This document shows, in pieces, positions 8,310 to 23,884 of a stretch of DNA of 64,000 bases. Source of the DNA: Candidatus Krumholzibacteriales bacterium (GTDB lineage: Bacteria; Krumholzibacteriota; Krumholzibacteriia; Krumholzibacteriales; WJIX01); the NCBI GenBank assembly GCA_046483305.1, contig JAWODM010000034.1, positions 27,997 through 91,996 on the forward strand, in the 5' to 3' direction. A program made the translations under genes and the position numbers. The stretch's first letter is position 1, and every line of letters begins with the position of its first letter. Under the pieces are notes generated by a model that saw only the letters and a list, made by a program, of their open reading frames with translations, did not search any database and was not told where the DNA came from.

Positions 8310-11300
8310 CTATGCCGCGCCATCATTCTTCTTTCTGTTTCTTCTGATCCTTTCCTCCATTATCGAGTACAGGGTAGGAACGAAAAGCAGTGTAACCAGG
8401 GCCGAGAAAAGGAGGCCTCCTATAACCGATATCGCAAGGGGGCTCCAGCTTTCGGCGCCCTCTCCGGTGCTGAGAGCCAGCGGTGTAAGGGCGAATATGG
8501 TAGTGAAAGCGGTCATCAGTACCGGCCTGAGCCGCCTCTGTCCGGCAGTCAGTATTGCTTCCCGTATTTCATACTCTCTGGCCCTCAGTATATTGGTGTA
8601 ATCTACCAGCACGATACCGTTATTTACCACTATACCCACCAGCATTATCATCCCCACGTAAGATACCAGGTTCAGGGTATTCCCGGTAATGAGAAGGGCC
8701 ATTATTACACCGGTAATGGCAAAGGGGACTGAGAACATTATTACGAAGGGGTCGAGCAGAGATTCGAACTGGGAGGCCATTACCATATAAACGAGGGTTA
8801 TACCCAGAATCAGCGCCAGGAAGAGGTATTTAAACGATTCCGCCTGGTCTTCGGCGGTCCCCCCGAAGTGGAGCGCTATATTCGGGGGAATTTCCATCCC
8901 GTCTGTCTCTTCGCGGATATCCTCAACCACGTCACCGAGAGGCCTCCCGTATATCCCGGCATTCAGGTATACCACTCTCTGCTGATTCTTTCTCTCCAGG
9001 GTTCTAACCCCTCTTTCAATCCGCAGTTCCGCGATATTCGCAAGGGGTATCTGCCGGCCGGTAACCGGTGATATTACCGTGGTTCTCAGCAGGTTTCTGG
9101 TGTCCCTGCGGGTCTTCCTGTCGAGCCTTATTCTGGTATCGAACTCGTCGTCGCCTTCGCGGTAAAGCATCGCTATCTTTCCCTCGAAGTTATTCCTTAC
9201 CGTGTTCGATATGTGAGCCATATTAAGGCCAAGCATCGCCGCCTTCTCCCTGTCCACCTCAACCCACAGCTCGGGCTTGCCCGGTTTTCTGGAGATGGAA
9301 GGGTCGATTATTCCCTCGATTCCCTTAACCACCTCCAGCAGCTCCCCGGCGAATTTGCCGGAGGCGCTGTAATCGTCGCTGTATATCTCGATCGACACCG
9401 GTGTGGTGCCTCCCGACATCATCGCCGCGAACATATCGGTGGGGGTGAAATCAACCGCAACCACGCCTGGTATCTTCTTGATCTCCCTGGAGAGCATCTT
9501 CCCGATGTCCGCGTCTGAACGCTCTCTTTCATTCTTGTCTATAAGCATTCCTCCCACATTGATTATATGAGTATCTTCCTGCCTTCCTATCATGGCGCTG
9601 AATCCTGACTCGCTGGTTCCGCACCTGGCGAACACCATGTCGGCTTCCGGAACTTTCTCGAAAAGGATCTGTTCCACCCGGGCCATTACACTGTCGGTTA
9701 CCTCCACCCGGGTGCCTACCGCCAGCTCTATATTGCCCCTCACCTCTCCCTGGTCCACCATGGGGAAGAATTCCGTGCCGATGAATCTGGTAAGAAGAAG
9801 CGATGAAAGGAATATCACCAGGCCGGAGAGGATGACGGCCTTCCGGTGGTTCAGAGACCAGTTGAGCAGGCCGGCGTAGAAAGTTTCAATCCTTCTGAAT
9901 ATCCTGTTTCCGTATGCCTGGAGAGCGGTTTCCTTCCTGTTGTCAATCCGGCGAAGCAACTTTGAGGAGAGCATGGGAGTCAGAGAAAGGGCGCAGAAGA
10001 GTGAACCGATAAGCACTACTATTATGGAGAAGGCAAGTTCCTTGAAGATAATCCCGGTAATACCCGGGATGAATATAACCGGTATGAATATGGAAACCGT
10101 GGTGGCGGTGGATGCGGTTACCGCAAGGCCTACCTCGGATGAACCGAATACCGCCGATTCATTCGGGGATTCGCCGATTTCCTTTCGGTGATAGTATATA
10201 TTCTCGAAGATTACTATCGCGTTATCCACCACCAACCCGATAGCTATCGCCACCGCCGACAGAGACATTGTATTTATGGTGTATCCGCCCAGGTAGAGAA
10301 AGATAAATGCCAGCACCATGGAGAAGGGGATGGTTACTCCCACGATGAAACTTCCCCTCCATTCCCGCAGAAACAGGAAAACTACTATTACCACAAACAG
10401 AATCGCCCATAGTACTGTATTCCTGAGGTTGTTAACCGAATCCTTTATGAATTTGGACGAGTCCATGATGATGTTCACCCTGGCGTCCGATGGAAGGTCC
10501 TCAGCCAGCAGGGGCAGTTCTCCGGTTATACTTTCGGCCACTTCCACTGTGTTTTCATCGGACTGCTTCATCGCCAGCACCACCACCGCTTTCTCTCCGT
10601 TGACTCTTACCCTCCGGTCCTTTTCCTTGTACCCGTCAATCACCTCGGCGACATCTCTTACGTAGACCGGTTTATTATCCCTCACTGCCACCACCGTGCC
10701 TGCAATTTCATCAACCCCGGTGTATTCTCCTGGCACCCTGATAATATATTCGGTTTTCCCCATCTCTATCTTGCCGGCGGGCCTGGATATGTTCTCAGCG
10801 GCCAGGACGGTTGCTATCTGCTGTTCCGATATCCGGTATCCCTCCAGCTTTCCCTGGTCCACGATGATCTTTATCTCCCGTTCTTCTCCTCCCATCGCTT
10901 CCGCCAGGGCCACGCCGGGAAGCCTCATCAGTGGATCGCAAATCCTCTTTTCCACTATGTTAAAGAGTTCGTTATAGCTCTGGTCGGCAGTAATACCTAT
11001 CCACATTACCGGCATCATGGAAAGGTCGAATTTAATCAGCATCGGTTCTTCCGCGTCTTCGGGAAGGGCTTCTTCCGCGAAATCTATCGCCTGGCGGATA
11101 TCATTGGCGGCTTCGTCCAGGTTGGTGCCCCACTCGAAGCTGATCAGGATCGAGGAATAGTCTTCCATTGAATTGGAGTTGATATCCTTAATATGTGAGA
11201 TCGCGGCCAGGTTGGATTCCAGAATCTTGGTAACCAGGTTTTCCATATCTCTGGAGCTGGCGCCGGGGTATCTGGTGATTACGCCCATGGTGGGGATTTC

Positions 11301-11420
11301 GATCTCAGGCATGACATCTATCTTTATCCGGGTGAGCGATATTATCCCGATGATCAGAATGGCCATAAAGACCATCATCGTCATTACCGGTTTATCTACT
11401 GACTTTCTGGGGAGTTTCAA
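8310..11420 (-). CDS. RND family efflux transporter permease (AcrB/HAE1-like)
   Basis: 1036 aa, 12-TM RND architecture, GLVVDNAIVIFENI TM4 motif, more like multidrug HAE than heavy-metal HME pumps. Confidence 0.9.
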   Translation of the reverse strand: MKLPRKSVDKPVMTMMVFMAILIIGIISLTRIKIDVMPEIEIPTMGVITRYPGASSRDMENLVTKILESNLAAISHIKDINSNSMEDYSSILISFEWGTNLDEAANDIRQAIDFAEEALPEDAEEPMLIKFDLSMMPVMWIGITADQSYNELFNIVEKRICDPLMRLPGVALAEAMGGEEREIKIIVDQGKLEGYRISEQQIATVLAAENISRPAGKIEMGKTEYIIRVPGEYTGVDEIAGTVVAVRDNKPVYVRDVAEVIDGYKEKDRRVRVNGEKAVVVLAMKQSDENTVEVAESITGELPLLAEDLPSDARVNIIMDSSKFIKDSVNNLRNTVLWAILFVVIVVFLFLREWRGSFIVGVTIPFSMVLAFIFLYLGGYTINTMSLSAVAIAIGLVVDNAIVIFENIYYHRKEIGESPNESAVFGSSEVGLAVTASTATTVSIFIPVIFIPGITGIIFKELAFSIIVVLIGSLFCALSLTPMLSSKLLRRIDNRKETALQAYGNRIFRRIETFYAGLLNWSLNHRKAVILSGLVIFLSSLLLTRFIGTEFFPMVDQGEVRGNIELAVGTRVEVTDSVMARVEQILFEKVPEADMVFARCGTSESGFSAMIGRQEDTHIINVGGMLIDKNERERSDADIGKMLSREIKKIPGVVAVDFTPTDMFAAMMSGGTTPVSIEIYSDDYSASGKFAGELLEVVKGIEGIIDPSISRKPGKPELWVEVDREKAAMLGLNMAHISNTVRNNFEGKIAMLYREGDDEFDTRIRLDRKTRRDTRNLLRTTVISPVTGRQIPLANIAELRIERGVRTLERKNQQRVVYLNAGIYGRPLGDVVEDIREETDGMEIPPNIALHFGGTAEDQAESFKYLFLALILGITLVYMVMASQFESLLDPFVIMFSVPFAITGVIMALLITGNTLNLVSYVGMIMLVGIVVNNGIVLVDYTNILRAREYEIREAILTAGQRRLRPVLMTAFTTIFALTPLALSTGEGAESWSPLAISVIGGLLFSALVTLLFVPTLYSIMEERIRRNRKKNDGAA

Positions 11421-12535
11421 TTACCCTTTCCCCCTTCCACCGCCACTCTGCTTCCGTCACTGACCACGTTTTTGCCCGCCAGGATAACTGTCTCGCCCTC
11501 TGCCAGCCCTTCGGATATCTCTATAAACAATCCTTCCCGTAGCCCCGGTTTTACCTCTCTGCGCCTGGCGGCCCCATCTTCCACCACGAACAGATAATCC
11601 CTGCCGCTGGCCTCCAGGAGGGCATCCACCGGTACCGCCACCGCGCCTTTCCTCTCCCTGACGATGAGCTCCACGGTGGCGAAGAACCCCGGTTTCAGCA
11701 TACCGCCGGGATTCCCTGCGCTGACTTCCAGGGGAAAAGATCTGGTCTGTATGCTGGCCGCCGGGCTCAGCGAATAAACAGAGCCCTCAAAAAGGGTATC
11801 CGGGTAAGTATCAACGCGGATAACCGCCCTGTCCCCTTTGTCCAGATACTTTATATCCTCCGCCGGGACCGTCCCCTCTATTTTTACCGATGAAATATCC
11901 ATGAGGGTGGCTACCCCCGGGCTTCCGGGCATGGGGCTCAGGATATCCCCTTCATCAGCGTTCCGGCTGGTGATATAGCCGGCGAAGGGGGCCTTTATAA
12001 CCGCCTCATCCATGTTATAACGGGCCATCTCCAGGTTCGCTTCCGCCTGCCGCAGCTGCGCCATAGCCGATTCATGCGCCAGCTGCGCCTGTTCGTAGTC
12101 CCTGGTTGATACCGATCCCTTCTCCTTCAGTTTCAGCAGCCTGTTGTAATTGGTCCTGGCGTTCTCCAGGCTGGCTTTCGCGACAGATACCGCCGCTTCC
12201 GCCTGGTTCAACTGTATCCTTACCGGCGCCATGTCAAGGTTCGCGATAATCTGTTGCTCCTCCACGTAATCTCCCTGCTCAATCAGTATCTCATCCAGCT
12301 TGCCCCCGGCGGCCGGCACTATATCCGATCTCTGCCAGGGCTGAATGGTGCCGGTGAAGATTATCCGGTCGCTTATATCCTTTCTGGAGGCGGTGAACGT
12401 CTTGACCGGAACGGGGCCGTTCTCCTCTTCCGCTCCGCAGTATCCGGAAAAGATCATAGCCAGGGCCGCAATTGAAAGCAGAGAGGCCGAGGCCATATAT
12501 TTCAGAATCGTTTTCCGGTGGCGCTTATAAGGCAT
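11417..12535 (-). CDS. RND efflux periplasmic adaptor (membrane fusion protein)
   Basis: Signal/lipoprotein-like N-terminus, coiled-coil and beta-barrel/lipoyl segments. Overlaps the pump start. Confidence 0.8.
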   Translation of the reverse strand: MPYKRHRKTILKYMASASLLSIAALAMIFSGYCGAEEENGPVPVKTFTASRKDISDRIIFTGTIQPWQRSDIVPAAGGKLDEILIEQGDYVEEQQIIANLDMAPVRIQLNQAEAAVSVAKASLENARTNYNRLLKLKEKGSVSTRDYEQAQLAHESAMAQLRQAEANLEMARYNMDEAVIKAPFAGYITSRNADEGDILSPMPGSPGVATLMDISSVKIEGTVPAEDIKYLDKGDRAVIRVDTYPDTLFEGSVYSLSPAASIQTRSFPLEVSAGNPGGMLKPGFFATVELIVRERKGAVAVPVDALLEASGRDYLFVVEDGAARRREVKPGLREGLFIEISEGLAEGETVILAGKNVVSDGSRVAVEGGKGN

Positions 12536-12553
12536 ATGCTTTCCTTTCAGTTT

Positions 12554-13951
12554 TTATTCTGTTTCCGGGCTCCGGATCAGTTTGCCGGCAGCTCTTTCCA
12601 GGTTGGACCTGGCCACCAGATAGCGGGCCAGAGAGTTTCTGTGATTGGCCCTCGCTCTGGTAAGAATCAGCTGGGCATCCAGGAGCTCTGTGTTATTAAT
12701 GATTCCTTCCGTGAATTTCTGATCGGCTACCCGGTAGTTTTCCCTGGCATGTCTGAGCGCTTCTTCACTTGCCGACACGGACTGCTTCGTTTCGGTAAGC
12801 TGGAGCAGGGCCCTGGCCACATCCAGTTTCACCGCTTCCCTGATCTTTTCCAGCTCCAGTTCCAGCTGTTTTCTTCTGCTGTTCGACTGTCCGGCCCGGT
12901 GGGCGGCCGCTCCCCAGTCGAAAATGTTCATTCTTGCGACCACACCCATGGTCCAGGTGGTATAGAACTCGTCCAGATACTGCCGGTCGGGGCGGTTATA
13001 ACCGAGATTGGCGAAGAAGGAGATGTCCGGAAGGTAAGCTTTTCTGTCTATGGTATACTGTTTTCCAGCTATATTGAGCTGATTTTCCACGGCGGCAATC
13101 TCGGGCCTGCGGTTGACTGCCTCTGCGGTCACCTTATCCAGATTTATCAGGGACGGCCCGGGGTCAACCGATGGTTTTTCGGTCAGCCGGACCGCTGAAG
13201 ATAGCGGGAGCCCCAGCATGTCGCAGAGGTTCTTCTGAGCAAGCTCTATACTGTTATTGGCCTGAATCAGCCCGAGGTGCGATTCGGAGAGCAGGGCCCT
13301 GGTCTTTAGCATGTCATTTCTGGCGGCAAGCCCGTTTTCATAGAGGTTTTCAAGATCCTGCAGCTGCGAGCTGAGCATCCTTGCCGACTCGACCGCCACC
13401 TCTTTCAGTTCCATGGCGTTATACAGGCTCCAGTAGGACTGAACAGTTTCGAAAATAAGCTGGTTTCTTCTCGCCCGGAGGTCCGATACCGCGGCATCCC
13501 TGGCGAATTCACTGATATCGCACTGATCCATTATCTTGCCGAAGGTGAATATGGGCTGTGTAAGGTTCAGAGATAGTGAATAGTTGTTCGGGGAGCCTAT
13601 CACTATCTTCTTGGGCATCTCTTCCTCACCGGGGGTGGGAGAGCCGAATCCTCCGAACATCGCGGCGGGAAAGAAGGGGGCCATGTCCAGCCTGGTGTAA
13701 TTTGCCTCCCCGGTCAGCTTCGGCATACTGGAGGTTCTGGATTCCTTCAATCTTTCTTCGCTCTCGAGAATTTTCTCCCTGGCTATCTTAATGTCCCGGT
13801 TGTTCTTCAGGGCCATGGCGATGCTCCGGTCCAGAGAGAGCCGCAGGGTGTCGCCGGCCGCCGGAAGGGCGGCTGAGGTTTCGGCCCCGGCAGGCGAGAT
13901 GAAAAAAAGCAGCGCCGACTCGATTGCCATTATTCTGATCAGATTCTTCAT
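12554..13951 (-). CDS. TolC-like outer membrane efflux protein
   Basis: Signal peptide, duplicated OEP repeat architecture, 465 aa, upstream of the adaptor and pump. Confidence 0.8.
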   Translation of the reverse strand: MKNLIRIMAIESALLFFISPAGAETSAALPAAGDTLRLSLDRSIAMALKNNRDIKIAREKILESEERLKESRTSSMPKLTGEANYTRLDMAPFFPAAMFGGFGSPTPGEEEMPKKIVIGSPNNYSLSLNLTQPIFTFGKIMDQCDISEFARDAAVSDLRARRNQLIFETVQSYWSLYNAMELKEVAVESARMLSSQLQDLENLYENGLAARNDMLKTRALLSESHLGLIQANNSIELAQKNLCDMLGLPLSSAVRLTEKPSVDPGPSLINLDKVTAEAVNRRPEIAAVENQLNIAGKQYTIDRKAYLPDISFFANLGYNRPDRQYLDEFYTTWTMGVVARMNIFDWGAAAHRAGQSNSRRKQLELELEKIREAVKLDVARALLQLTETKQSVSASEEALRHARENYRVADQKFTEGIINNTELLDAQLILTRARANHRNSLARYLVARSNLERAAGKLIRSPETE

Positions 13952-13955
13952 GTCA

Positions 13956-14636
13956 TTACCGTTCTCTTTTCAGCAAGGGATAGAACTTCAGCCCGAAGTT
14001 AATATTTATTATACCCTGCTCGGTAAACCCCCGGCCGAAGTGAAAGGTATCCCTGCATAGAATATAGTTATAATTTGATTCCGCGGTGATCGATATCCGC
14101 CGGCTGAGCGCAAGCTCCGCTCCCAGCCCTCCCTGCAGCCCAATGCTCACCTTCTGCAGATCCTCCCCCTCGAACTGCCTTGCTTCTCCGAAGAATTCTG
14201 CTTCGGATATTCTCCAGTAGTACATTCCCGCGCCCGCTCTGATATGGATGTCCAGCTTTCCCGGCCTGAGGATCGAATAACTGTTGCTGAGTACCAGAGA
14301 GGCCACTGAGAAGTTGGAGGAGGTTTCGTAAATCTCTCTGGCAAAATTCATCCTGCCCGCGGCCGCGGATATCCTGGTGGAGAAGCGGGAGCTTACCCTT
14401 TTGCTGACGCTCAGTGTTAATTCCGGGCCGGTGTCGAGCAGGTCAGCGGATGAATTTTCCATATCCAGGGATCCCGATACCGGCAGAAGCATCCCCCCGG
14501 AAACCGCTGCCGCCCAGCCACTATTGTCCATGTCCGAATCATGCCGCTCCGCAGCGGCAGCCGTCTGAAAATGAACATTCAGAACTGCCAGTGAAGGAAT
14601 GACCAGTATGAGTGATATCAGCTTTTTCAAGTTCAA
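13956..14636 (-). CDS. secreted hypothetical protein, probable outer-membrane beta-barrel; first gene of the efflux operon
   Basis: Signal peptide and alternating-hydrophobic beta-strand pattern. Confidence 0.45.
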   Translation of the reverse strand: MNLKKLISLILVIPSLAVLNVHFQTAAAAERHDSDMDNSGWAAAVSGGMLLPVSGSLDMENSSADLLDTGPELTLSVSKRVSSRFSTRISAAAGRMNFAREIYETSSNFSVASLVLSNSYSILRPGKLDIHIRAGAGMYYWRISEAEFFGEARQFEGEDLQKVSIGLQGGLGAELALSRRISITAESNYNYILCRDTFHFGRGFTEQGIININFGLKFYPLLKRER

Positions 14637-14834
14637 GATGCCCTCCGGAACAGAAGCCGGAATGTATAAATATTAAGTATCGAATTATAGCAGTTCAGAG
14701 ATCGATAGTGAATCGATAATTATTCTGAATTATTCTGAAAATTATAATACTGATGCCCTGATGTCAATATTACCAGACTTGGAGTTTCCCCAATTTTTAT
14801 AACCTATAAGGTAGTCGATGATTTGTAATAGTAT

Positions 14835-14982
14835 GTGGATTATTGATATTTTCAAAATCTTGGTCGATTTCCCCGGCGAGGAAACCGCCACTCCCGCCCC
14901 GGGCTCGCTCTTTCTGCCCCTCCGGGTCAGAAATCCTTGCCCGCTCGCCCTCCGGAGGGTTTTGAAAATATCAATCATCCAC
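14835..14982. repeat. 148 bp element bounded by 23 bp terminal inverted repeats (22/23 match) around a GC-rich core; MITE-like or structured regulatory element
   Basis: GTGGATTATTGATATTTTCAAAA at 14835-14857 and TTTTGAAAATATCAATCATCCAC at 14960-14982. Core contains short CCCTCCGG repeats. Confidence 0.4.
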
Positions 14983-15264
14983 ACTCACCAGCAATGAAAA
15001 CCCTATTCCAGTTACCAATCTTAATAACTTATTGTATCTCGCAATGTTAGTAAAATACTTGCCGGATTTTTGGGGGAACTCCAATACCAGACAGACGGAT
15101 TTGCCTTATTAATAACAGAATTTTTCCCTGATTTTTTACCCTACGGCGCCATTCAGCGGAATTGGATGTTCAATATCTTTTCAGAGCTTCCTTGATTACG
15201 CGCCGGCCCGGGGTGGCGATCAAGGAAATAATGTTAAATATAGATAACAAATTGTAAAACACAC

Positions 15265-15293
15265 TTGACATGATGATAGAATATGATTAAAAT
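15265..15293 (+). promoter_or_regulatory. sigma70-type promoter (TTGACA, 17 nt spacer, TAAAAT) upstream of the XRE regulator
   Basis: TTGACA at 15265-15270 and TAAAAT at 15288-15293. Confidence 0.4.
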
Positions 15294-15372
15294 ATGTATA
15301 GTATACCTTACAATTAGTAAAGGATATTAAACATTGAAACCGGCACAGAGCTGATAGAGGGGAGCTGATGTT

Positions 15373-15585
15373 ATGAAACTTGGAAACAACCTGAGACGGT
15401 GCAGGTTCGAAATGAACGAAATGACTCAGGAGGAACTGGCAAAGGAGGTAGGCGTTACCAGGCAGACCATTATTTCGATCGAGAAGAACAGGTATGTGCC
15501 CTCAACCCTGCTGGCGCTCAAGCTGGCGAAATTCATGGGTAAGAGATTCGAGGAGGTCTTTTATCTTATCGAAGAAGATGACTGA
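15373..15585 (+). CDS. XRE-family helix-turn-helix transcriptional regulator (YozG-like)
   Basis: 70 aa, Cro/C1-type HTH (QEELAKEVGVTRQTIISIEKNRYVPS). Confidence 0.8.
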   Translation: MKLGNNLRRCRFEMNEMTQEELAKEVGVTRQTIISIEKNRYVPSTLLALKLAKFMGKRFEEVFYLIEEDD

Positions 15586-15621
15586 TTATCATACTTAAGG
15601 TTAAAATGAAAGGAGCCTTAA

Positions 15622-16098
15622 ATGAATACCAAGCTGTTTGTTCTTATAATTCTTGTCCTGGGGGTTGCCGCATTTTATCTGCTCCCGAGAACCAGGCTCA
15701 GCGGGAGGCTGAAGATGAATGAAAAACTCTTCTGCGCTGTGAATGTAATCGGTGTGATCTGCGGGGCAGCCGGCCTGGCCCTCTCGCTGGCCATGGGCGG
15801 GAAGATACTTACCGGGCACTACTTTGAGCTGATTCTTCTTCCCGCGGTGCTGGTATATCTCTATTCCGCGATGATCATGAAATCGACCGGAAATGAAGCC
15901 GCATATGACGAAAAGCAGAATTACAATATGACCCAGGCGGCGGCGTTATCTCTGCCGTTTTCGGTGGCGGGAATGTTCATTCTGTACGCCCTGTACAGGG
16001 AATCGGTTTTCGGGGGAATGGTCTGGTTCCCAGTGTACCTGTTCCTGAACCTGACCGTATACTCGGCGGGGGTCCTGGCATTTTTCAGAAAAAATTGA
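15622..16098 (+). CDS. small integral membrane protein (4 predicted TM helices) co-transcribed with the XRE regulator
   Basis: Four hydrophobic segments. A common XRE plus membrane-protein pair. Confidence 0.55.
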   Translation: MNTKLFVLIILVLGVAAFYLLPRTRLSGRLKMNEKLFCAVNVIGVICGAAGLALSLAMGGKILTGHYFELILLPAVLVYLYSAMIMKSTGNEAAYDEKQNYNMTQAAALSLPFSVAGMFILYALYRESVFGGMVWFPVYLFLNLTVYSAGVLAFFRKN

Positions 16099-16122
16099 TA
16101 TAGAATTGATTTGTAAAACGAT

Positions 16123-16150
16123 CATCACGTAGTATATATACTACGTGATG
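16123..16150. promoter_or_regulatory. perfect 28 bp palindrome, operator-like site 1
   Basis: CATCACGTAGTATATATACTACGTGATG is its own reverse complement. Core GTAGTATATATACTAC is shared with site 2. Confidence 0.55.
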
Positions 16151-16232
16151 TTAAGCATATTATAAGATATTTAGCCTTATATGGTTATGTTTTAAATTAT
16201 AATAACTATTTAAGAAGGCATTAAATCACCTT

Positions 16233-16262
16233 ATATTATGTAGTATATATACTACATAATAT
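16233..16262. promoter_or_regulatory. perfect 30 bp palindrome, operator-like site 2
   Basis: ATATTATGTAGTATATATACTACATAATAT is its own reverse complement and shares the 16 bp core with site 1. Confidence 0.55.
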
Positions 16263-16295
16263 GAACTAAAATTATCGAAATATATTTTCAGTCTA

Positions 16296-16350
16296 TTGAC
16301 AACAAAGGAATTACAGATTATACTATATATAAAGTCTGTAGTATATATAC
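16296..16350 (+). promoter_or_regulatory. sigma70-type promoter (TTGACA, 17 nt spacer, TATACT) plus a half-site of the palindrome core, upstream of the AbiEi-like gene
   Basis: TTGACA at 16296-16301 and TATACT at 16319-16324. TGTAGTATATATAC at 16337-16350 matches the left half of site 2, 14 nt before the ATG. Confidence 0.45.
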
Positions 16351-16363
16351 CAAAGGAAAAGAC

Positions 16364-17242
16364 ATGAGTCCTACAAGATTTCAAATAGCAAAAAAAGATA
16401 TTGTTAACTACTTTGAAGAATTAGAAGAAAATATTCTTACACATAGTGATATCTCCGATATACTTTTTAGAGAACGTGAGTTCTGGCGTTTACCAAAAAA
16501 TATGACATCCAATAGTTTTATTGACACTCTTATAAGAGAGACAAAATTACAAATGCATAGATTTGAATTTCCTTATCGCCCGTCAACAATATATTCCTGG
16601 GGAGATGTTTCAGAATATCAATTATATCTATCATTAAAACCTAATTCTTATTTTTCTCATTATACAGCAATGTACTTACATAATCTAACAGATCAAATTC
16701 CAAAAAATGTATATATAAACTCTGAACAGTCCCCTAAGCCTCAACAAAGAGGCAAGCTATTACAAGCTAATATTAACAAAGCTTTTTCTAGACCTCAAAG
16801 AACAACTAATAATATAACCACATACAATGAACATAAAATATATATGTTAAGTGGTAAATATACTGACAACTTAGGGGTAACAAAGCTGAAGACTGAAGAT
16901 AATGGTAATATCACAGTGACAAATATTGAAAGAACTTTGATTGATATAGTGGTTAGACCGATTTACTCAGGTGGAATTTATGAGGTATTAAATGCATACA
17001 AAGCAGCTAAAGGGAAAGTATCAATAAATAAAATAGTTGCATACTTAAGTAAACTAAAATACAAATACCCATATCATCAATCTATTGGATTTCTACTAGA
17101 AACAACACTATATGACGAATCAAAAATTGAATTGCTTATGGATTTTGATATTTCAAATAAATTTTACTTATCTCATCAAATGAAAGACAAGGCTTTTTCT
17201 GAAAAATGGCAACTCTATTATCCAAAGGGTATGATAAGTTAA
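16364..17242 (+). CDS. AbiEi-like antitoxin/transcriptional regulator (COG5340-type) of a type IV TA / abortive infection system
   Basis: 292 aa, Lys-rich. Segment YFSHYTAMYLHNLTDQIP and NIERTLIDIV resemble conserved AbiEi regions (from recall). Adjacent to a DUF1814 nucleotidyltransferase. Encoded in AT-rich DNA. Confidence 0.5.
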   Translation: MSPTRFQIAKKDIVNYFEELEENILTHSDISDILFREREFWRLPKNMTSNSFIDTLIRETKLQMHRFEFPYRPSTIYSWGDVSEYQLYLSLKPNSYFSHYTAMYLHNLTDQIPKNVYINSEQSPKPQQRGKLLQANINKAFSRPQRTTNNITTYNEHKIYMLSGKYTDNLGVTKLKTEDNGNITVTNIERTLIDIVVRPIYSGGIYEVLNAYKAAKGKVSINKIVAYLSKLKYKYPYHQSIGFLLETTLYDESKIELLMDFDISNKFYLSHQMKDKAFSEKWQLYYPKGMIS

Positions 17243-18093
17243 TTGCAGAAATTCTCCAAAAAGAAATCAAAGTAATAATTGAAATCCCCTGATCTTTCTT
17301 CAGCATTAGTTGTTGCCAAAACAGAGGGGAAATCTTGAGCGTGGAAGTCCCTATATTTATAAATTATTCGCAATAAGCTAAGTGGGACTTTTTTTGATTC
17401 AAAAATCTTTTGCATAATTTCCCTATTATTATCTATACCAATTGAAAAATTATTCATTAGTAAATGAATATCATAGAAATCTCTTGCTCTTGGTTTAATA
17501 GTCATAGTGTTAACTATTTGTTTATATTCTTCAGTTTGTTGGCAAATTGCTCTTGCTTTCTCAAAGACTATCATTTCAGGCGAATATACATATAGGTTAT
17601 AATCTTCTATTTTCCCCCTTTGTTTATTACTGCAGTATTCAAATTTACTAATGTCAATTTTAAAGGTTTTCCTTTGTTTAGGTCCGACTACTAATGCTCT
17701 TCTTCTCAATTTATCTTTATTATCTTTATATTTATCAAATGAATTCTGATCAATAATTTTAAAACTAATTTTGTATCCTCCCCAAAATGTTTTTAAATTT
17801 TCTGATATCTTTTCTGGGACTTCCTCAAATTTGAAATCAATAATTTCATATCCTTTTCTTATAAATGCTTCTTTTAATGTTTTTTCTAATTTTTCTGAAA
17901 TTAATCCAAATTCTAATTTAGTGAATTCACCATTAATTGAATAATCAATATCAATAGAAGATCTAGCTGAAATATTAAAAATATAGTTTATAGCATTACC
18001 ACCTTTTAAAACCAGTCTCTCCAATAGATAATCATCTGAAACTAGAGCTATAATTGCAGTCTTTCTTATTTCATCCTCATAATTATTATTCAT
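17239..18093 (-). CDS. AbiEii/AbiGii-like nucleotidyltransferase toxin (DUF1814 family)
   Basis: 284 aa with the NTase-fold signature LKGGNAI...SSIDIDYS (GG-x-A then DID). Convergent with the AbiEi-like gene, stops overlapping by 4 bp. Confidence 0.6.
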   Translation of the reverse strand: MNNNYEDEIRKTAIIALVSDDYLLERLVLKGGNAINYIFNISARSSIDIDYSINGEFTKLEFGLISEKLEKTLKEAFIRKGYEIIDFKFEEVPEKISENLKTFWGGYKISFKIIDQNSFDKYKDNKDKLRRRALVVGPKQRKTFKIDISKFEYCSNKQRGKIEDYNLYVYSPEMIVFEKARAICQQTEEYKQIVNTMTIKPRARDFYDIHLLMNNFSIGIDNNREIMQKIFESKKVPLSLLRIIYKYRDFHAQDFPSVLATTNAEERSGDFNYYFDFFLENFCN

Positions 18094-18276
18094 AAAAATA
18101 GCTGATTTCTATTCCAGTTACTTATTTAGAAATATTTCCACAATTATAATATACTTGGATAATGCTTAATATATACATCAATATCGTATAAAAAAAAGGG
18201 TAAAAAAAGTAAACATTTGAACGGAATCATAATTTATGATATAATTAAACCGTTGAATTTTACAGGAGAAGAAAAA

Positions 18277-18348
18277 ATGATAAAAGTCATGATGCACGTC
18301 AACTGTTGTTGTAGTCCCGAAAAATATCCGGGATACGTGTATCGATGA
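18277..18348 (+). CDS. 23-codon leader peptide MIKVMMHVNCCCSPEKYPGYVYR with three consecutive Cys codons, upstream of cysK
   Basis: AGGAGA at 18264-18269, seven nt before the ATG. TGT TGT TGT at 18304-18312. A strong intrinsic terminator follows within 25 nt. Confidence 0.5.
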   Translation: MIKVMMHVNCCCSPEKYPGYVYR

Positions 18349-18372
18349 CCCTTTGAAAATACTGTTATCGAC

Positions 18373-18407
18373 GCGGGGCTCCCGGAATTTTCCGGGAGCC
18401 CTTTTTT
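18373..18407 (+). terminator. rho-independent terminator/attenuator between the Cys leader and cysK
   Basis: 10 bp stem GGGCTCCCGG / CCGGGAGCCC with loop AATTTT, followed by eight T residues (18400-18407). An upstream CCGGGA at 18328-18333 can pair instead with TCCCGG in the 5' arm, a possible antiterminator. Confidence 0.7.
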
Positions 18408-18426
18408 TTAGGGGGAAGAAAGCAGA

Positions 18427-19317
18427 ATGATATACGGAAATATATTGATGAAGGTCGGGAATACCCCGTCGGTAAGGCTTCGGAGTTTTGAGAGGGGCCC
18501 GGATGTGGAGATTTACGCCAAGCTGGAAGGAGAGAACCCCAGCGGTTCAATCAAGGACCGGGTTGCCATCCATATGATAGAGAAGGCGGAATCTCGCGGC
18601 GAGTTGAAGCCGGGAAAGACTATTCTGGAGGCGACCAGCGGGAATATGGGGATATCGCTGGCTATGGTTGGCGCCCGGAGGGGTTATTCAGTGAAAATAA
18701 TAATGTCTGAGAAGGTAAGCAGCGAGAGAGCGGTACTGGTCAGGAGTTACGGAGCGGAGCTGGAGCTGACGGGGGAAAGATCAGGTACCCGGGGTGCTCT
18801 GGAGAGGGCCAGGGAACTTGCTGACAGGTATCCTGACAGATACTGGCTGGCGGACCAGTTCAACAACAGCGATAATACCGAAGCCCATTACCGGACAACC
18901 GCGGCGGAACTTCTCAGGGACATCGGTGATATAGACGGGGTGGTTGCCGGTGTGGGCACCGGCGGCACCCTGGGGGGGATCGCCGCCAGATTCAGGGAGG
19001 ATTCTCCCGATACCAGGATATTCGGTGTTATCCCTCCGAAGGGATACCAGATACAGGGCCTTCAGAATCCCGAAGAGGATTTCAGCGGAGAAATCTTCAG
19101 CTCCGATCTGATGGATGACAGGATATATGTAGATAGAAGGGATGCCTTCAATACGGCTAGAATGATTGCGAGAACAGACGGAATCTTTGTGGGTATGAGT
19201 TCGGGGGCGGCAGTTTTTGCCGCGGTGGAGGCGGCGGAGAGGATAGGAAGGGGAAGAGTAGCGGTAATAATTCCGGACATGGGGGAAAAGTACCTGAGCA
19301 CAGGGCTTTTCGGTTAG
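18427..19317 (+). CDS. cysK: cysteine synthase (O-acetylserine sulfhydrylase, CysK/CysM family)
   Basis: PLP-lysine motif SGSIKDR, glycine-rich GTGGT loop, 296 aa. Confidence 0.85.
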   Translation: MIYGNILMKVGNTPSVRLRSFERGPDVEIYAKLEGENPSGSIKDRVAIHMIEKAESRGELKPGKTILEATSGNMGISLAMVGARRGYSVKIIMSEKVSSERAVLVRSYGAELELTGERSGTRGALERARELADRYPDRYWLADQFNNSDNTEAHYRTTAAELLRDIGDIDGVVAGVGTGGTLGGIAARFREDSPDTRIFGVIPPKGYQIQGLQNPEEDFSGEIFSSDLMDDRIYVDRRDAFNTARMIARTDGIFVGMSSGAAVFAAVEAAERIGRGRVAVIIPDMGEKYLSTGLFG

Positions 19318-19496
19318 GAGGGCCGGTTACAGGGGACGGCCCTCCTGGCGGCTCACTGATTTTCCGCCACAGTAATAAACTGATAATAGTTATACATTTC
19401 TGAGAATTTATATTATACTCAAAAACTGATTATGTTTTTGCCGGGGCGGATAAGGTTCCGCTCCCTGACTGCCCGGTTAAATGAAAGGTTAGATCG

Positions 19497-20468
19497 ATGA
19501 GAGTTCTAATTACCGGTATAACAGGTTTTGCCGGGAGCCACCTGGCCGACCTGTGCCTCGAGAAGGATGATGTCGAGCTTTTCGGAATCATAAGATGGCG
19601 CAGCCGGACTGAAAATATCGAACATATATGGGATCAGCTGGAGCTTCTGGAATGCGATCTGAGGGATGCCAATTCCACCAGGGATGTAATTGAACAGATA
19701 GAACCGGAATATATTTTTCATCTGGCCGCTCAGAGTTTCGTCCCAACCTCCTGGAACGCCCCCAGCGAATCTTTGAGCACCAACATACTGGGCGAACTGA
19801 ATCTTTTCGAAGCGGTCAGGAAAGCGGGGCTGTCATGCAGAATTCAGATCGCCTGTTCCAGCGAGGAATACGGAATGGTGCTGGAAGAAGAAGTCCCCAT
19901 AAAGGAAACCAACCCCCTGCGTCCGCTGAGTCCCTACGGAGTAAGCAAGGTGGGGCAGGACCTGCTCGGGTACCAGTACTATATGAGCTACGGGATGGAG
20001 ATTGTAAGAACCAGGGGGTTCAATCATACCGGGCCGAGAAGAGGGCCGGTATTCGTATGTTCAGACTTCGCCAAGCAGATAACAGAGATAGAATCGGGCA
20101 GGAAGGAACCGGTCATACAGGTGGGAAATCTGGAAGCCAGGCGCGATTTTACCGATGTAAGAGATATGGTCAGGGGTTACTGGCTCTCGCTGGAAAGTGG
20201 CAGGGCCGGCGAAGTTTATAATATCTGCTCAGGCAGGAGCCACAGTATTCAAAGTATCCTGGATAAGCTGATCGAAATAAGCGGGGTAAAGCTGGAGGTG
20301 AGGCAGGATGAGTGCAGGCTGCGGCCCAGCGATGTTCCGCTGCTGGAAGGCGATTACAGTAAGTTCGCGGCGGATACCGGCTGGGAACCGGAGATACCTC
20401 TGGAAGAGACCCTTTCCGATCTCCTTGAATTCTGGCGCCAGAATCCGGACAGGGGTAAATTAATCTGA
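19497..20468 (+). CDS. NAD-dependent sugar-nucleotide dehydratase/reductase (GDP-mannose 4,6-dehydratase or Rmd-like short-chain dehydrogenase/reductase)
   Basis: N-terminal LITGITGFAGSHLAD Rossmann motif typical of Gmd/Rmd-type enzymes; 323 aa. Confidence 0.7.
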   Translation: MRVLITGITGFAGSHLADLCLEKDDVELFGIIRWRSRTENIEHIWDQLELLECDLRDANSTRDVIEQIEPEYIFHLAAQSFVPTSWNAPSESLSTNILGELNLFEAVRKAGLSCRIQIACSSEEYGMVLEEEVPIKETNPLRPLSPYGVSKVGQDLLGYQYYMSYGMEIVRTRGFNHTGPRRGPVFVCSDFAKQITEIESGRKEPVIQVGNLEARRDFTDVRDMVRGYWLSLESGRAGEVYNICSGRSHSIQSILDKLIEISGVKLEVRQDECRLRPSDVPLLEGDYSKFAADTGWEPEIPLEETLSDLLEFWRQNPDRGKLI

Positions 20469-20477
20469 TTATTCATT

Positions 20478-21431
20478 ATGCGAGTTTTAATTACTGGTGC
20501 ATACGGTTTTGTGGGCAGGTATATGGCCCGTGAAATGGCTGAGGCGGGATTCGAAGTCCTGGCAACGGATATCATCGATCCTGATGAGGCGAAGAAGGCT
20601 CTGCCGGAAGGAGCCGCTTACAGAGAATGCAATCTTCTGAGCGGTAATGAAGTGAATGGGCTGCTGGAGGAGCCCCTCCCCGGCCTGGTAATCCATCTCG
20701 CAGCTCTCAGCTCAGGGCGCAAATCGATTTCGGCGCCTCTGGAGACTTTCCGGACCAACATTATCGGATTTGTAAATCTCCTGGAAGGGGTGAGAAGAAG
20801 CGGAGGGGATATCAGAGTACTGGCGGTCGGTTCCGGCGAGGAGTATGGCAGAAAGAGGCCGGGCGAAATGCCGATCAGCGAAGACGCGGCGATAGGACCG
20901 GCAAATCCATACGCTGCCAGCAAGGCGTCCCAGACTATCATCGGACTGCAGTATCACCGGACTTACAATATGGACCTGGTGGCCACCCGGAGTTTCAATC
21001 ATACCGGACCCGGCCAGACCGATACTTTCGTGTTGCCCTCATTCGCCCGAAAATGCGCCGAGATTGCGGCGGGGGCCAGGGAGCCGGTCCTCAGGACCGG
21101 GAATCTCGAGATAGTGCGAGATTTTCTTGATGTCAGGGATGTGGTGAAAGCTTACCGGATGCTTTGTGAGAAAGGCCGTGCCGGAAAGGTATACAATGTA
21201 TGCTCGGGAGAGGGCCTGAAATTGAAAGAAGCACTTGACATAATGGTCGAACAGTTTGATATAGATGTTGATAAGGGTAAGGACCCGGAATTGTACAGGC
21301 CGGCTGATGTGCCCGTATTCGTCGGGGACAACAGCATGCTTTCGGAGGAGACCGGGTGGAAGAGAAACATCACGGCAACGGAGATGCTGTCTGACCTTGT
21401 GGATTACTGGAGAAGCCTTTATGGTGGATAA
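20478..21431 (+). CDS. NAD-dependent epimerase/dehydratase, paralogue of the preceding gene (GDP-6-deoxy-mannose reductase-like)
   Basis: LITGAYGFVGRY motif; collinear similarity to the upstream SDR enzyme (short-chain dehydrogenase/reductase); 317 aa. Confidence 0.7.
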   Translation: MRVLITGAYGFVGRYMAREMAEAGFEVLATDIIDPDEAKKALPEGAAYRECNLLSGNEVNGLLEEPLPGLVIHLAALSSGRKSISAPLETFRTNIIGFVNLLEGVRRSGGDIRVLAVGSGEEYGRKRPGEMPISEDAAIGPANPYAASKASQTIIGLQYHRTYNMDLVATRSFNHTGPGQTDTFVLPSFARKCAEIAAGAREPVLRTGNLEIVRDFLDVRDVVKAYRMLCEKGRAGKVYNVCSGEGLKLKEALDIMVEQFDIDVDKGKDPELYRPADVPVFVGDNSMLSEETGWKRNITATEMLSDLVDYWRSLYGG

Positions 21432-21460
21432 GGTACAGTAGCTTTGAAAGAAAGTGGGAG

Positions 21461-22771
21461 TTGTCAATGCCTGATATATGTATGGTTGGAACAGGTTATG
21501 TAGGGCTGGTGAGCGGCGCCTGCCTGGCTGATTTTGGAAATACAGTCATATGCGTGGATATAAACGAGGACAGAATTTCTCAGATAAAGAACGGCATTAT
21601 ACCGATTTATGAACCGGGGCTCAAGGAGCTGGTAAGCAGAAACAGAGATTCCGGCAGGTTATTTTTTGCCACCGATCTGGAAGAAGGGGTGAGAAAATCG
21701 GATGTTATCTTCTCCGCGGTGGGAACCCCCATGGGGGAAGACGGTTCGGCCGACCTCGGCGCGGTTTTCCGTGTTGCCGCTGATGTGGCCGGCTATATGA
21801 AACAGTACAAGGTGTTCGTTCAGAAGAGTACAGTCCCGGTAGGTACTTCAGAGAAGGTGGGGCAGATTATCAGGGAAAATCTCAAGGGAGATATCGACTT
21901 TGAGAGGGTATCCAACCCGGAATTCCTGAGAGAAGGATCCGCCATTGAGGATTTCATGCGCCCCAATAGAGTTGTTATCGGGGTGGACAGCCCCAGGGCA
22001 AGGGAGATCATGAGAGAGATTTACCGCCCGCTCTACCTGCTGGAAACGCCGGTGGTATTCACTTCGGTCAGAACAGCCGAGCTTATCAAGTACGCCAGCA
22101 ATTCGTTCCTGGCTGTGAAGATATCATTCATAAACGAGATAGCGGACCTCTGTGAGAAACTGGGCGCGGATATCAGCGATGTGGCCAAAGCCATGGGCCT
22201 GGACAGGAGGATCGGGCCCAAATTTCTTCACGCCGGTATCGGTTACGGGGGATCCTGCCTCCCCAAGGACGTGGCAGCCATACTTCATACGGCGGAAACC
22301 CACGGGGTGGACCTCAGGATTATCTCCGGGGCCGACAGGGTCAACAATGCAAGGGTGGACAGGCTGATGGAAAAGGTATACTCCGAATTCCCCGGTATTA
22401 AGGGAATAGATATAGCCCTGCTGGGGCTTTCATTCAAGCCGAACACCGACGATGTGCGCGACGCCCCGTCACTGAGGTTCATAGACCGGGCGCTGGAGGA
22501 GGGAGCGGAGCTGAGAGTTTATGATCCGATCGCCATGGATAACGTCAAGGAGATATACGGTTCGAAGCTCAAATATTTCGATAACGCCTACGGCGCTATC
22601 GAGGGGGCGGAAGCGCTGGTTATAATGACCGAATGGAATGAATTCAGAGTGCTCGATATGGACAGGGTGGAGGAACTGATGAAGGGCAGGGCGATCTTCG
22701 ACTGCCGCAACATATATAAGGACGTCGATCTCGAGAGTAAGGGGTTCTCGTATCATTCGTTCGGCCGCTGA
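21461..22771 (+). CDS. nucleotide-sugar 6-dehydrogenase (UDP-glucose or UDP-ManNAc dehydrogenase family)
   Basis: N-terminal GTGYVGL NAD-binding motif, catalytic GGSCLPKD motif, 436 aa. Confidence 0.85.
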   Translation: MSMPDICMVGTGYVGLVSGACLADFGNTVICVDINEDRISQIKNGIIPIYEPGLKELVSRNRDSGRLFFATDLEEGVRKSDVIFSAVGTPMGEDGSADLGAVFRVAADVAGYMKQYKVFVQKSTVPVGTSEKVGQIIRENLKGDIDFERVSNPEFLREGSAIEDFMRPNRVVIGVDSPRAREIMREIYRPLYLLETPVVFTSVRTAELIKYASNSFLAVKISFINEIADLCEKLGADISDVAKAMGLDRRIGPKFLHAGIGYGGSCLPKDVAAILHTAETHGVDLRIISGADRVNNARVDRLMEKVYSEFPGIKGIDIALLGLSFKPNTDDVRDAPSLRFIDRALEEGAELRVYDPIAMDNVKEIYGSKLKYFDNAYGAIEGAEALVIMTEWNEFRVLDMDRVEELMKGRAIFDCRNIYKDVDLESKGFSYHSFGR

Positions 22772-22855
22772 CCCGCCTGGCCTCCGGTTCCCCTGCCGGA
22801 ACCGGGAGTTTTCTCCCGGCTGTGCGGAAACGCGGTTTGCGAGAGGATGTAACTG

Positions 22856-23884
22856 ATGAGGAAAATTCTGGTCACCGGAGGAGCCGGGTTTATCGGATCC
22901 AATTTCGTTAAAATGATTCTGGAAAGGAAGAGCCGTAACCATGTGATAGTTCTGGATAAACTCACCTACGCCGGGAATATAGATAATCTTGAGGGGTATA
23001 TGAATAATCCCGGGCTTGATTTTGTGAGGGGCGACATCGGAAACGGGCAGCTTCTGGACCTGCTGGTGCCGGGGGTGGATATAATTTATAATTTCGCCGC
23101 TGAAACGCACGTGGACCGTTCCATCCTGGAGGGCGGTTCTTTTGTGAGAACCGACGTGATGGGTACCTTCACGCTTCTTCAGAAAGCCATGGAGCATGAG
23201 GTGCCCCGTTTTGTGCAGGTCTCCACTGACGAAGTATATGGGAGTATTGAAAAGGGAAAGTTCAGGGAAACCGATCCGATAAGGCCTAACAGCCCCTATT
23301 CAGCCTCCAAATCGGGAGCGGATCTGCTGGTAAGGGCCTTCTACAAAACATATGGACTGCCGGTTCTGATAACCAGAAGTTCCAATAATTACGGGCCGTT
23401 CCAGCATCCCGAAAAATTCATTCCGTTGTTTATCACCAATGCTCTTGAGGGCAGGGAACTTCCGCTCTACGGAGACGGCAGGAATGTAAGAGACTGGATC
23501 TATGTTGAGGATAACTGCCGTGCTATCGATCTGGTGGGGAGGAGGGGCAGAATCGGAGAGGTATACAATATCGGCGCCGGCGCGGAGAAGGAGAACCGTT
23601 ATATCGCCGGGAAGATACTGGAACTGACCGGAGCTGATAGCGGACTGCTCAAACTGGTTTCCGACAGGCCGGGACACGACAGAAGGTACGCAATAGACTC
23701 GCGCAAGATTAAATCTCTGGGATGGAAGAACAGGACAGCTTTCCCGGAGGGGCTCGAAAAGACCGTTAAGTGGTACATGAAGAATAAGAGCTGGTGGAAG
23801 AGAATCAAGGAAGGCAGTTTCAGGGACTATTACGACAGAATGTACAGTCAGCGGCTTGAGGAATCTTCTGACGGGAAAGGTTGA
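22856..23884 (+). CDS. rfbB: dTDP-glucose 4,6-dehydratase
   Basis: ILVTGGAGFIGSNF motif and YSASKxxxD catalytic triad region; 342 aa. Confidence 0.85.
   Translation: MRKILVTGGAGFIGSNFVKMILERKSRNHVIVLDKLTYAGNIDNLEGYMNNPGLDFVRGDIGNGQLLDLLVPGVDIIYNFAAETHVDRSILEGGSFVRTDVMGTFTLLQKAMEHEVPRFVQVSTDEVYGSIEKGKFRETDPIRPNSPYSASKSGADLLVRAFYKTYGLPVLITRSSNNYGPFQHPEKFIPLFITNALEGRELPLYGDGRNVRDWIYVEDNCRAIDLVGRRGRIGEVYNIGAGAEKENRYIAGKILELTGADSGLLKLVSDRPGHDRRYAIDSRKIKSLGWKNRTAFPEGLEKTVKWYMKNKSWWKRIKEGSFRDYYDRMYSQRLEESSDGKG

Follow-up and report, generated by a model that had tools for sequence, protein, structure and literature searches.

The window analyzed here is a 64,000-nucleotide stretch of DNA from a Candidatus Krumholzibacteriales bacterium (contig JAWODM010000034.1, positions 27,997 to 91,996). 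It contains an AT-rich island carrying two convergent genes related to the AbiE abortive infection system, which code for an AbiEi-like winged-helix protein and an AbiEii/DUF1814 nucleotidyltransferase (NTase), together with a set of palindromes upstream of the AbiEi-like gene. A preliminary description made from the sequence had suggested horizontal acquisition, with either autoregulation by the winged-helix protein or a variant type IV toxin-antitoxin (TA) or abortive infection module of unusual organization. The features of the locus are as follows.

16099–18216, unstranded: AT-rich island, from the stop codon of the upstream membrane-protein gene to the promoter-like site of the cysK leader
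16123–16150, unstranded: distal palindrome O1, perfect, 28 bp (arms CATCACGTAGTATA and TATACTACGTGATG)
16233–16262, unstranded: middle palindrome O2, perfect, 30 bp (arms ATATTATGTAGTATA and TATACTACATAATAT)
16296–16324, plus strand: sigma-70-like promoter candidate for the AbiEi-like gene, TTGACA-17-TATACT, 11 of 12 matches, a consensus match only
16338–16353, unstranded: degenerate proximal site O3, GTAGTATATATACCAA, a left half-site plus core with 2 mismatches
16364–17242, plus strand: AbiEi-like gene, predicted antitoxin and autorepressor, 292 aa, with an N-terminal winged helix and an AbiEi-type C-terminal domain
17239–17242, unstranded: stop-codon overlap of the convergent genes, 4 nt, TTAA
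17239–18093, minus strand: AbiEii/DUF1814 nucleotidyltransferase gene, predicted toxin, 284 aa
18094–18216, minus strand: AT-rich, non-conserved region upstream of the toxin gene, with a lone TATAAT at 18148–18143 and a weak ribosome-binding site

The predicted toxin and antitoxin

The identity of the 284-aa protein as a DUF1814 NTase is confirmed by profile searches with Pfam AbiEii (PF08843; 7.4e-20, 72.3 bits, cut-off 22.5) and PADLOC AbiEii (1.8e-17), and by the motifs LKGGNA (K30 G31 G32) and SIDID (S46 D48 D50). These six residues, together with D86, E152, E178, K179, R181, R202, D205 and D208, are kept by 66 or more of the 68 homologues in related loci. The GG pair and D48/D50 equate with residues G49/G50, D67 and D69 that were mutated in Streptococcus agalactiae AbiEii (PMC3985639), and S46, two residues before the first catalytic Asp, occupies the position of the phospho-acceptor T65 of that protein.

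The 292-aa protein matches PADLOC AbiEi over residues 10–284 (8e-24), and phmmer aligns it with the S. agalactiae AbiEi structure 6Y8Q and with an AbiGi structure (E 1.6e-4). Its AlphaFold2 (AF2) model has a pLDDT of 93.6 and an N-terminus of the order H-S-H-H-S-S, and the sole Protein Data Bank matches found by Foldseek with E < 0.001 are AbiEi (6y8q, 2e-9) and Rv2827c of Mycobacterium tuberculosis (1zel, 8e-7), the latter with a TM score of 0.57–0.60 over the whole chain. In the phmmer alignment the loop T109-D110-Q111-I112-P113 corresponds to T84-D85-E86-I87-P88 of S. agalactiae AbiEi, in which D85/E86/I87 are needed for stable toxin binding and full antitoxicity (bioRxiv 10.64898/2026.01.19.700257); T109, Q111 and P113 are invariant among 45 clade sequences. 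Curated models respond less clearly. Pfam AbiEi_1 scores 18.1 bits, below its cut-off of 22.2, and there is no match to a Pfam N-terminal AbiEi family or to NCBIfam; across the clade it is AbiEi_1 only that registers, in 26 of 45 members at E < 0.01. The proposed AbiEi/COG5340-like identity thus stands by PADLOC and by fold, but not by the thresholds of the curated families, and on these sequence and model comparisons the assignment of both proteins to a predicted AbiE pair holds.

Gene order, relatives and horizontal origin

The open reading frame (ORF) coordinates bear out a convergent pair with a 4-nt stop overlap, an order unlike that of the canonical abiEi-abiEii locus, which is a bicistronic operon (PMC3985639). 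Relatives were collected with one genome per species; 276 species have a relative, and the best 80 loci (41–55% identity) were analyzed, from Dehalococcoidia, Zixibacteria, Planctomycetota, Aminicenantes, Bacteroidota, Acidobacteriota, Nitrospirota, Burkholderiales and others. Directly downstream of the AbiEi-like gene, 77 of the 80 carry an AbiEii homologue in the opposite orientation, and in 71 of these 77 convergent loci the genes overlap at their 3' ends, most commonly by 24 nt but also by 4, 8, 27 or 39 nt. The other six have an in-frame stop 7–368 nt downstream, with truncated hits involved in at least some, and in the remaining 3 of the 80 loci the toxin is lost or truncated: the AbiEi-like gene is solo in L013, L038 and L082, with the toxin absent or replaced in L013 and L082 and reduced to an 88-aa C-terminal fragment in L038. 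In each of the homologues at 72%, 69% and 51% identity, the AbiEii gene converges on the AbiEi-like gene and overlaps it by 4 nt. The organization is therefore convergent, as the preliminary description had it, but by this survey of homologous pairs it is conserved in the clade and not peculiar to the window. One metagenome contig (L006, 2207–5742) has the entire module in duplicate, head-to-head on either side of a perfect palindrome of 52 bp, an arrangement that may be a palindromic assembly artefact.

RefSeq annotations extend the convergent order to plasmids, as follows.

Bacillus subtilis 9.1-kb rolling-circle plasmid: convergent, 49-nt overlap
Burkholderia pseudomallei p1 plasmid: convergent, 24-nt overlap
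Hymenobacter plasmid: convergent, 4-nt overlap
Veillonella plasmid: convergent, 10-nt overlap
Planococcus pNM8: convergent, 9-nt overlap
Phycisphaera pPSMK1: convergent, 8-bp gap

More distant plasmid relatives from S. suis, S. aureus and Lactococcus petauri (33–37% identity) are divergent from AbiEii. In this Firmicutes subclade (S. suis pBM407 and the S. aureus and L. petauri plasmids) the two genes stand head-to-head about 200 bp apart (L284, 1680–1881; L285, 1738–1929; L292, 1540–1735), and the L284 and L285 intergenic regions each hold two palindromes, AAGCTATGGTATA-TATACCATAGCTT (the hyphen marks the center), so arranged that one operator array could control both promoters. Sulfurimonas and Aliarcobacter plasmid relatives (24–27% identity) are divergent from a HipA-family kinase toxin instead of AbiEii, and two palindromes of the same type lie between the AbiEi-like and HipA genes (L286, 1776–1926; L287, 1817–1947). 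These pairings suggest that the regulator-antitoxin may be a cassette that swaps toxins. Co-directional AbiEi-like/AbiEii pairs were not seen among the genome loci and plasmids examined, and the searchable literature holds no description of convergent AbiE or DUF1814 pairs, nor of AbiEi-HipA pairs. Judged by gene order and homology, the locus is a predicted member of a large, previously undescribed non-operonic clade of the AbiE family, which lacks the family's defining operon.

GC content is 0.21–0.30 at approximately 16050–18300 and 0.50–0.60 on either side, confirming the AT-rich island that had been placed in DNA of ~55% GC. The module is AT-richer than its flanks in all of 53 loci compared, by a mean of 10 points; its GC follows that of the host (r = 0.85), and the window has the largest gap to the flanks, 23 points. 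Its neighbors differ from those of the window in L001 and L003, and the homologues at 72%, 69% and 51% identity sit in unrelated neighborhoods. The closest database protein, 100% identical, comes from a Candidatus Krumholzibacteriales metagenome-assembled genome. Composition and changing neighbors support the proposal that the island is a horizontally acquired two-gene module, as read from sequence. Relatives occur on 47 PLSDB plasmids; only a single IMG/VR contig encodes one, and a phage-borne module was rejected on that count. A tRNA integration site or flanking repeats were likewise rejected for the window, there being no tRNA gene in 10000–24000 and no convincing terminal or flanking repeats around the island. 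In L026 the sequence beside the toxin gene (…GGGTTCGATTCCCACCGCCTCCA) resembles the 3' end of a tRNA gene, which hints at possible integration next to a tRNA in that genome.

Palindromes upstream of the AbiEi-like gene

The two perfect palindromes of 28 and 30 bp and the further half-site of the preliminary description are all present. O1 and O2 both contain GTAGTATATATACTAC, and O3, whose center lies 19 nt before the AbiEi-like ATG, is a two-mismatch copy; O2 has an identical site in L001. As single-stranded DNA, O1 forms a hairpin of -11.6 kcal/mol (z = -6.4), with a stem of 12 bp and a loop of 4 nt, and O2 one of -8.8 kcal/mol (z = -6.5), while O3 gives no hairpin. No further copy of the motif with up to three mismatches exists in the 64-kb window (0.07 expected from shuffles); this confinement to the island disposes, within the window, of the concern that the palindromes might be a genome-wide repeat. 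The sigma-70-like promoter candidate, TTGACA-17-TATACT, is the best promoter-like match, but such matches are no commoner here than in shuffled sequence.

Perfect palindromes with arms of at least 10 bp were surveyed in 79 non-redundant loci with a placeable AbiEi start, and are found almost only within 450 bp upstream of the AbiEi-like gene. With the 10-bp core (G[TC]ATATAT[AG]C) as the sole criterion, in loci of ~6.8 kb, 155 of 160 sites lie between -500 and 0 of the AbiEi-like gene and 5 elsewhere in the loci. There are 2–4 sites per locus, with a peak of center-to-center spacing at 109–111 bp; despite this peak, helical phasing was rejected, as the Rayleigh test gives no single sharp period. 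The center of the last palindrome is most often 20–40 nt before the ATG in relatives, and L004, L008 and L009 have a perfect TTGACA-17-TATAAT whose -10 hexamer falls inside the left arm of the proximal palindrome, a typical position for a putative repressor site. Palindromes of the same type stand in the intergenic region common to the divergent AbiEii and HipA pairs. Thus, irrespective of the partner gene and its orientation, the palindromes accompany the AbiEi-like protein, and this is the best available argument for regarding them as its predicted binding sites. Canonical AbiEi and Rv2827c are autoregulated through inverted repeats in their own promoters (PMC3985639, PMC7319586). Covariation between recognition helix and operator core was considered and found not to be interpretable, because the core change (GCAT in Burkholderiales, GTAT in others) coincides with one clade.

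The toxin side differs. The module of L001, 75% identical, is homologous in nucleotide sequence to 16224–18093 of the window, a match that ends exactly at the abiEii ATG. The palindrome motif is absent from 18094–18276 at up to three mismatches, and upstream of abiEii in 68 loci there is no palindrome cluster, enriched 7-mer or shared motif. A shared operator on the toxin side was rejected on these grounds, and with homology stopping at the ATG and nothing shared upstream, the proposed AbiEi operators do not precede the toxin gene.

Arm symmetry was measured on sites chosen by the core only, which avoids selection bias. The fraction of symmetric positions is 0.91–0.95 at distances of 6–13 from the center, 0.88 at 14, 0.67 at 15, 0.46 at 16 and ~0.39 beyond 16; composition alone predicts ~0.28, and perfect arms have a modal length of 14–15 bp. 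Positions 12–13 carry 0.09 bit of sequence information, yet are 93–99% symmetric. Arms of different sites in one locus are 46% identical at positions 6–14, and those of sites in different loci 41%. With so little information and between-site identity and so much within-site symmetry, the arms vary freely but must match each other. Some subclades do have arms common to their sites, namely the Staphylococcus and S. suis plasmids, the B. subtilis plasmid and the Burkholderiales.

Orthologous sites in close relatives have changed on both arms at 21 positions (18 restoring a Watson-Crick pair) and on one arm at 4. L017 and L021, which are 93% identical over the region, differ at the proximal site by two doubly compensated changes, and in L055 and L059 the middle palindrome is rewritten between flanks that are ~95% identical. 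Such concerted arm evolution needs intrastrand pairing as hairpin or cruciform, be it as a selected function or as a copying mechanism, and indicates that intrastrand DNA pairing at the palindromes probably occurs or is selected. A 53-bp quasi-palindrome about 190 bp upstream of the AbiEi-like ATG is exactly inverted between L017 and L021, and at other sites the lone asymmetric base pair of the center is on one side in some loci and on the other in their close relatives (GTATA-CATAC versus GTATG-TATAC). Both are as expected if hairpin-mediated inversion operates here.

The palindrome also occurs away from AbiE-like genes. The 16-mer core is present in 50 IMG/VR contigs, in 26 of which it has arms of 13–18 bp (mode 14) that are variable yet symmetric. 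Chance origin of these long arms was rejected with a composition-matched control core (GTACTATATATAGTAC), whose 23 hits have arms of 8–10 bp plus three low-complexity TATA arms of 13 bp. Uncultured tailed-phage contigs (L088, L089, L095, L101, L104, L109, L111, L113, L128, L130, L134 and others in IMG/VR) carry one perfect palindrome of 28–36 bp each, with the core GTAGTATA-TATACTAC and often flanked by CCAT...ATGG, and metagenome contigs L179, L235, L260 and L276 are of the same kind. The site lies in a short intergenic gap ~35 bp upstream of ORFs of 61–73 aa and, in five contigs, directly after a gene of ~265–290 aa; in L134 it is downstream of a portal gene, and one contig has an SU10-type portal protein. 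A hidden AbiEi-like gene beside these palindromes was rejected, tblastn and hhalign finding no AbiEi or AbiEii relative in the phage-like contigs. Apart from the portal protein, the neighbors of the sites match nothing in Pfam or PHROGs, and one neighboring protein has no tblastn match in INPHARED. In metagenomes 54 of 120 hits have long arms; 28 of these adjoin an AbiEi-like gene and 26 do not. By the distribution of these sites, something besides the AbiE-like module appears to use the palindrome element.

Proposed mechanism and alternative readings

The locus is probably best explained as a horizontally acquired AbiE-family TA or abortive infection module with separate toxin and antitoxin transcription units, in which the palindromes are operators of the antitoxin-repressor. 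By homology to AbiEii and MenT, the 284-aa NTase would be the toxin, blocking translation by adding nucleotides to tRNA acceptor ends, and the 292-aa protein would neutralize it through its C-terminal domain and TDQIP loop by inducing toxin auto-phosphorylation, with S46 as the predicted phospho-acceptor. The co-occurrence pattern leads us to predict that the N-terminal winged-helix domain binds the 28–30-bp palindromes upstream of its own gene. These proposed operators have the conserved core GTATA-TATAC, the proximal one overlapping the promoter or transcript start, and binding would repress the AbiEi-like gene only. The toxin gene, with its own non-conserved upstream region, would be coupled to the antitoxin gene through the protein. 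The 3' overlap means that transcription of either gene must extend into its neighbor, making complementary transcript ends unavoidable; convergent transcription across the overlap may thus provide an extra coupling, by transcriptional interference or antisense RNA.

In the canonical AbiE locus, regulator and NTase genes form a bicistronic operon in that order (Dy et al. 2014, PMC3985639), and AbiE has recently been proposed to be a type VII rather than a type IV system (bioRxiv 10.64898/2026.01.19.700257). As in S. agalactiae and L. lactis AbiE, the window encodes a DUF1814/COG2253 NTase with GG and S/T-x-D-x-D motifs and a partner with an N-terminal winged helix, an AbiEi C-terminal domain and a T-D-x-I-P loop, and inverted repeats precede the antitoxin gene. 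In contrast to canonical AbiE, where abiEi comes first with a 4-nt 5' overlap, the window genes are convergent with a 3' overlap, the partner has 292 rather than 195 aa (19% identity), the toxin gene is not behind the operator, and in place of one 23-3-23 pair by the promoter there are 2–4 separate perfect palindromes with variable symmetric arms. The M. tuberculosis Rv2827c-Rv2826c pair, which we take to be MenA4-MenT4 in the MenAT nomenclature, resembles the locus in partner size (293–295 aa), overall fold, multiple upstream inverted repeats and a DUF1814 toxin, but it is a co-directional operon, the proteins share 12–13% identity, and its four 23-bp repeats lie within 131 bp and follow a common consensus. 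SanaTA, RlegTA and SdenTA, with the DUF1814 toxin first and a COG5340-like antitoxin second, illustrate that gene order in such pairs is not fixed, although these too are co-directional operons, with smaller antitoxins (136–205 aa). In type I TA loci such as B. subtilis txpA/RatA and bsrG/SR4, a toxin mRNA and an antisense RNA converge and overlap at their 3' ends. The present units are similarly convergent with necessarily complementary 3' ends, whereas toxin and antitoxin are both proteins here, and an antisense effect would be putative.

Several points weigh against the proposed antitoxin-repressor module. Toxicity, neutralization, DNA binding and phage defense in this clade are all predictions, and the coupling by convergent transcription is pure inference. 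Curated Pfam and NCBIfam models fall short on the 292-aa protein, and the degenerate O3 may mean that repression at the window locus is weak. A dimeric repressor reading the arms cannot explain 46% and 41% identity between sites beside 91–95% within them. Finally, the core with 14-bp arms stands in phage-like contigs that have no AbiEi-like gene, so the protein may not be the sole user of the site.

A possible but rather unlikely alternative is that the palindromes are structural DNA elements, which would extrude as cruciforms nucleated at the TATATATA center in negatively supercoiled DNA and make promoter or protein binding, or both, state-dependent; this would make antitoxin expression a sensor of DNA topology or integrity, one that responds, for instance, to the relaxation or degradation of host DNA in phage infection. 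This would account for symmetry at the nearly information-free positions 12–13, for the sharp minimum arm length of 14–15 bp with occasional longer arms, and for the excess of both-arm over one-arm changes and the L017/L021 inversion. Symmetry is lowest at the central pair, as a loop would predict; several loci have their -10 hexamer within an arm, where extrusion would hide it; and the hairpins are stable (-8.8 to -11.6 kcal/mol). Stem mismatches are rare (~2%), and 19 of 50 among 200 sites are of the transition type, where one third is expected, so that there is no G:T excess, which fits a constraint on both strands and argues against an RNA-only constraint. Extrusion is, however, predicted from sequence features, palindromes of 28–30 bp are near the lower size limit for cruciform formation in vivo, the sites of some subclades have common arms, as ordinary operators do, and symmetry could persist by hairpin-templated repair without function. 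Horwitz and Loeb reportedly described, in 1988, a synthetic cruciform-regulated promoter; like the present sites it would have a palindrome spanning the -10 whose extrusion shuts the promoter, but it was engineered, and we know of no natural bacterial regulatory family for which such a cruciform-promoter logic is established. Whether the array is in addition a natural switch, with TATATATA-centered cruciforms or hairpins read by the AbiEi-like protein, RNA polymerase or both, and antitoxin synthesis reporting host DNA topology or integrity, is a speculative proposal that we regard as unlikely.

It is improbable that the genes are no TA pair at all, that is, an ordinary winged helix-turn-helix regulator beside a non-toxic NTase or inactive remnant, with the convergent order reflecting independent genes. 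This would suit the lack of an operon and of a common operator on the toxin side, the loss or truncation of the toxin in 3 of 80 loci, and the failure of S. agalactiae AbiE to protect Escherichia coli against 32 coliphages. Yet the genes are adjacent, and mostly 3'-overlapping, in 77 of the 80 loci over many phyla; both ORFs are intact, with the catalytic residues and toxin-binding loop conserved; the 292-aa protein shares its fold with proven antitoxins; carriage on small plasmids is what an addiction module would show; and decay is tolerated in the direction seen here, with the toxin lost and the antitoxin kept.

Least tenable is the reading that the palindromes are not operators but work as hairpins in RNA transcribed into or out of the module (as terminators, insulators, RNase III sites or stabilizers): the phage-like sites do lie in short gaps after ~270-aa genes, and in L134 after a portal gene, where such hairpins are common, and O1 scored terminator-like on the minus strand, but an RNA hairpin as the main constraint was rejected because G:U-compatible mismatches are not enriched and 15000–19000 has no Rfam match, and in addition most sites miss a T-run, a transcript from the consensus promoters would start at the palindrome center and hold one arm only, and the toxin side, where read-through would be most harmful, has no palindromes.

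AbiE and MenAT serve as the model for NTase toxins and antitoxin-induced auto-phosphorylation, and all studied members are operons. A clade spread across phyla in which toxin and antitoxin would never be co-transcribed, and whose cassette also stands with HipA, implies that operon coupling is dispensable for the mechanism, and raises the question of how the toxin-antitoxin balance is kept. Its predicted antitoxin is mostly annotated as 'hypothetical protein' among the RefSeq plasmid relatives, so TA and defense surveys that use curated antitoxin models may miss the clade. The more than 150 natural, independently evolved palindromes with co-changing arms would be unusually clean evidence for the relevance of hairpins or cruciforms in vivo at a bacterial regulatory region. 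Speculatively, and as part of the same unlikely reading of the array as a switch, the core palindromes of phages could mean that phage DNA titrates the antitoxin-repressor, or that a site-binding phage protein shuts the antitoxin promoter; if true, the module would in both cases sense phage directly. The clade is directly tractable, since Bacillus subtilis, Burkholderia and Staphylococcus have members on small plasmids.

The genes on either side of the island are of other kinds. Directly upstream, at 15373–16098, are a 70-aa XRE/HTH_3 regulator and then a 158-aa multi-pass membrane protein without a Pfam family, apparently a small two-gene unit of their own. Downstream, a promoter-like TTGAAC-17-TATAAT at 18217–18245 precedes the region 18278–18410, which holds a short ORF (MIKVMMHVNCCCSPEKYPGYVYR) with three consecutive Cys codons and lies just upstream of cysK (18427–19317). 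A strong terminator-like hairpin at 18375–18402, followed by a T-run, comes after this short Cys ORF and upstream of cysK. No Rfam family scores above threshold in the cysK leader region, which by its layout looks like a cysteine-sensing leader-peptide attenuator.

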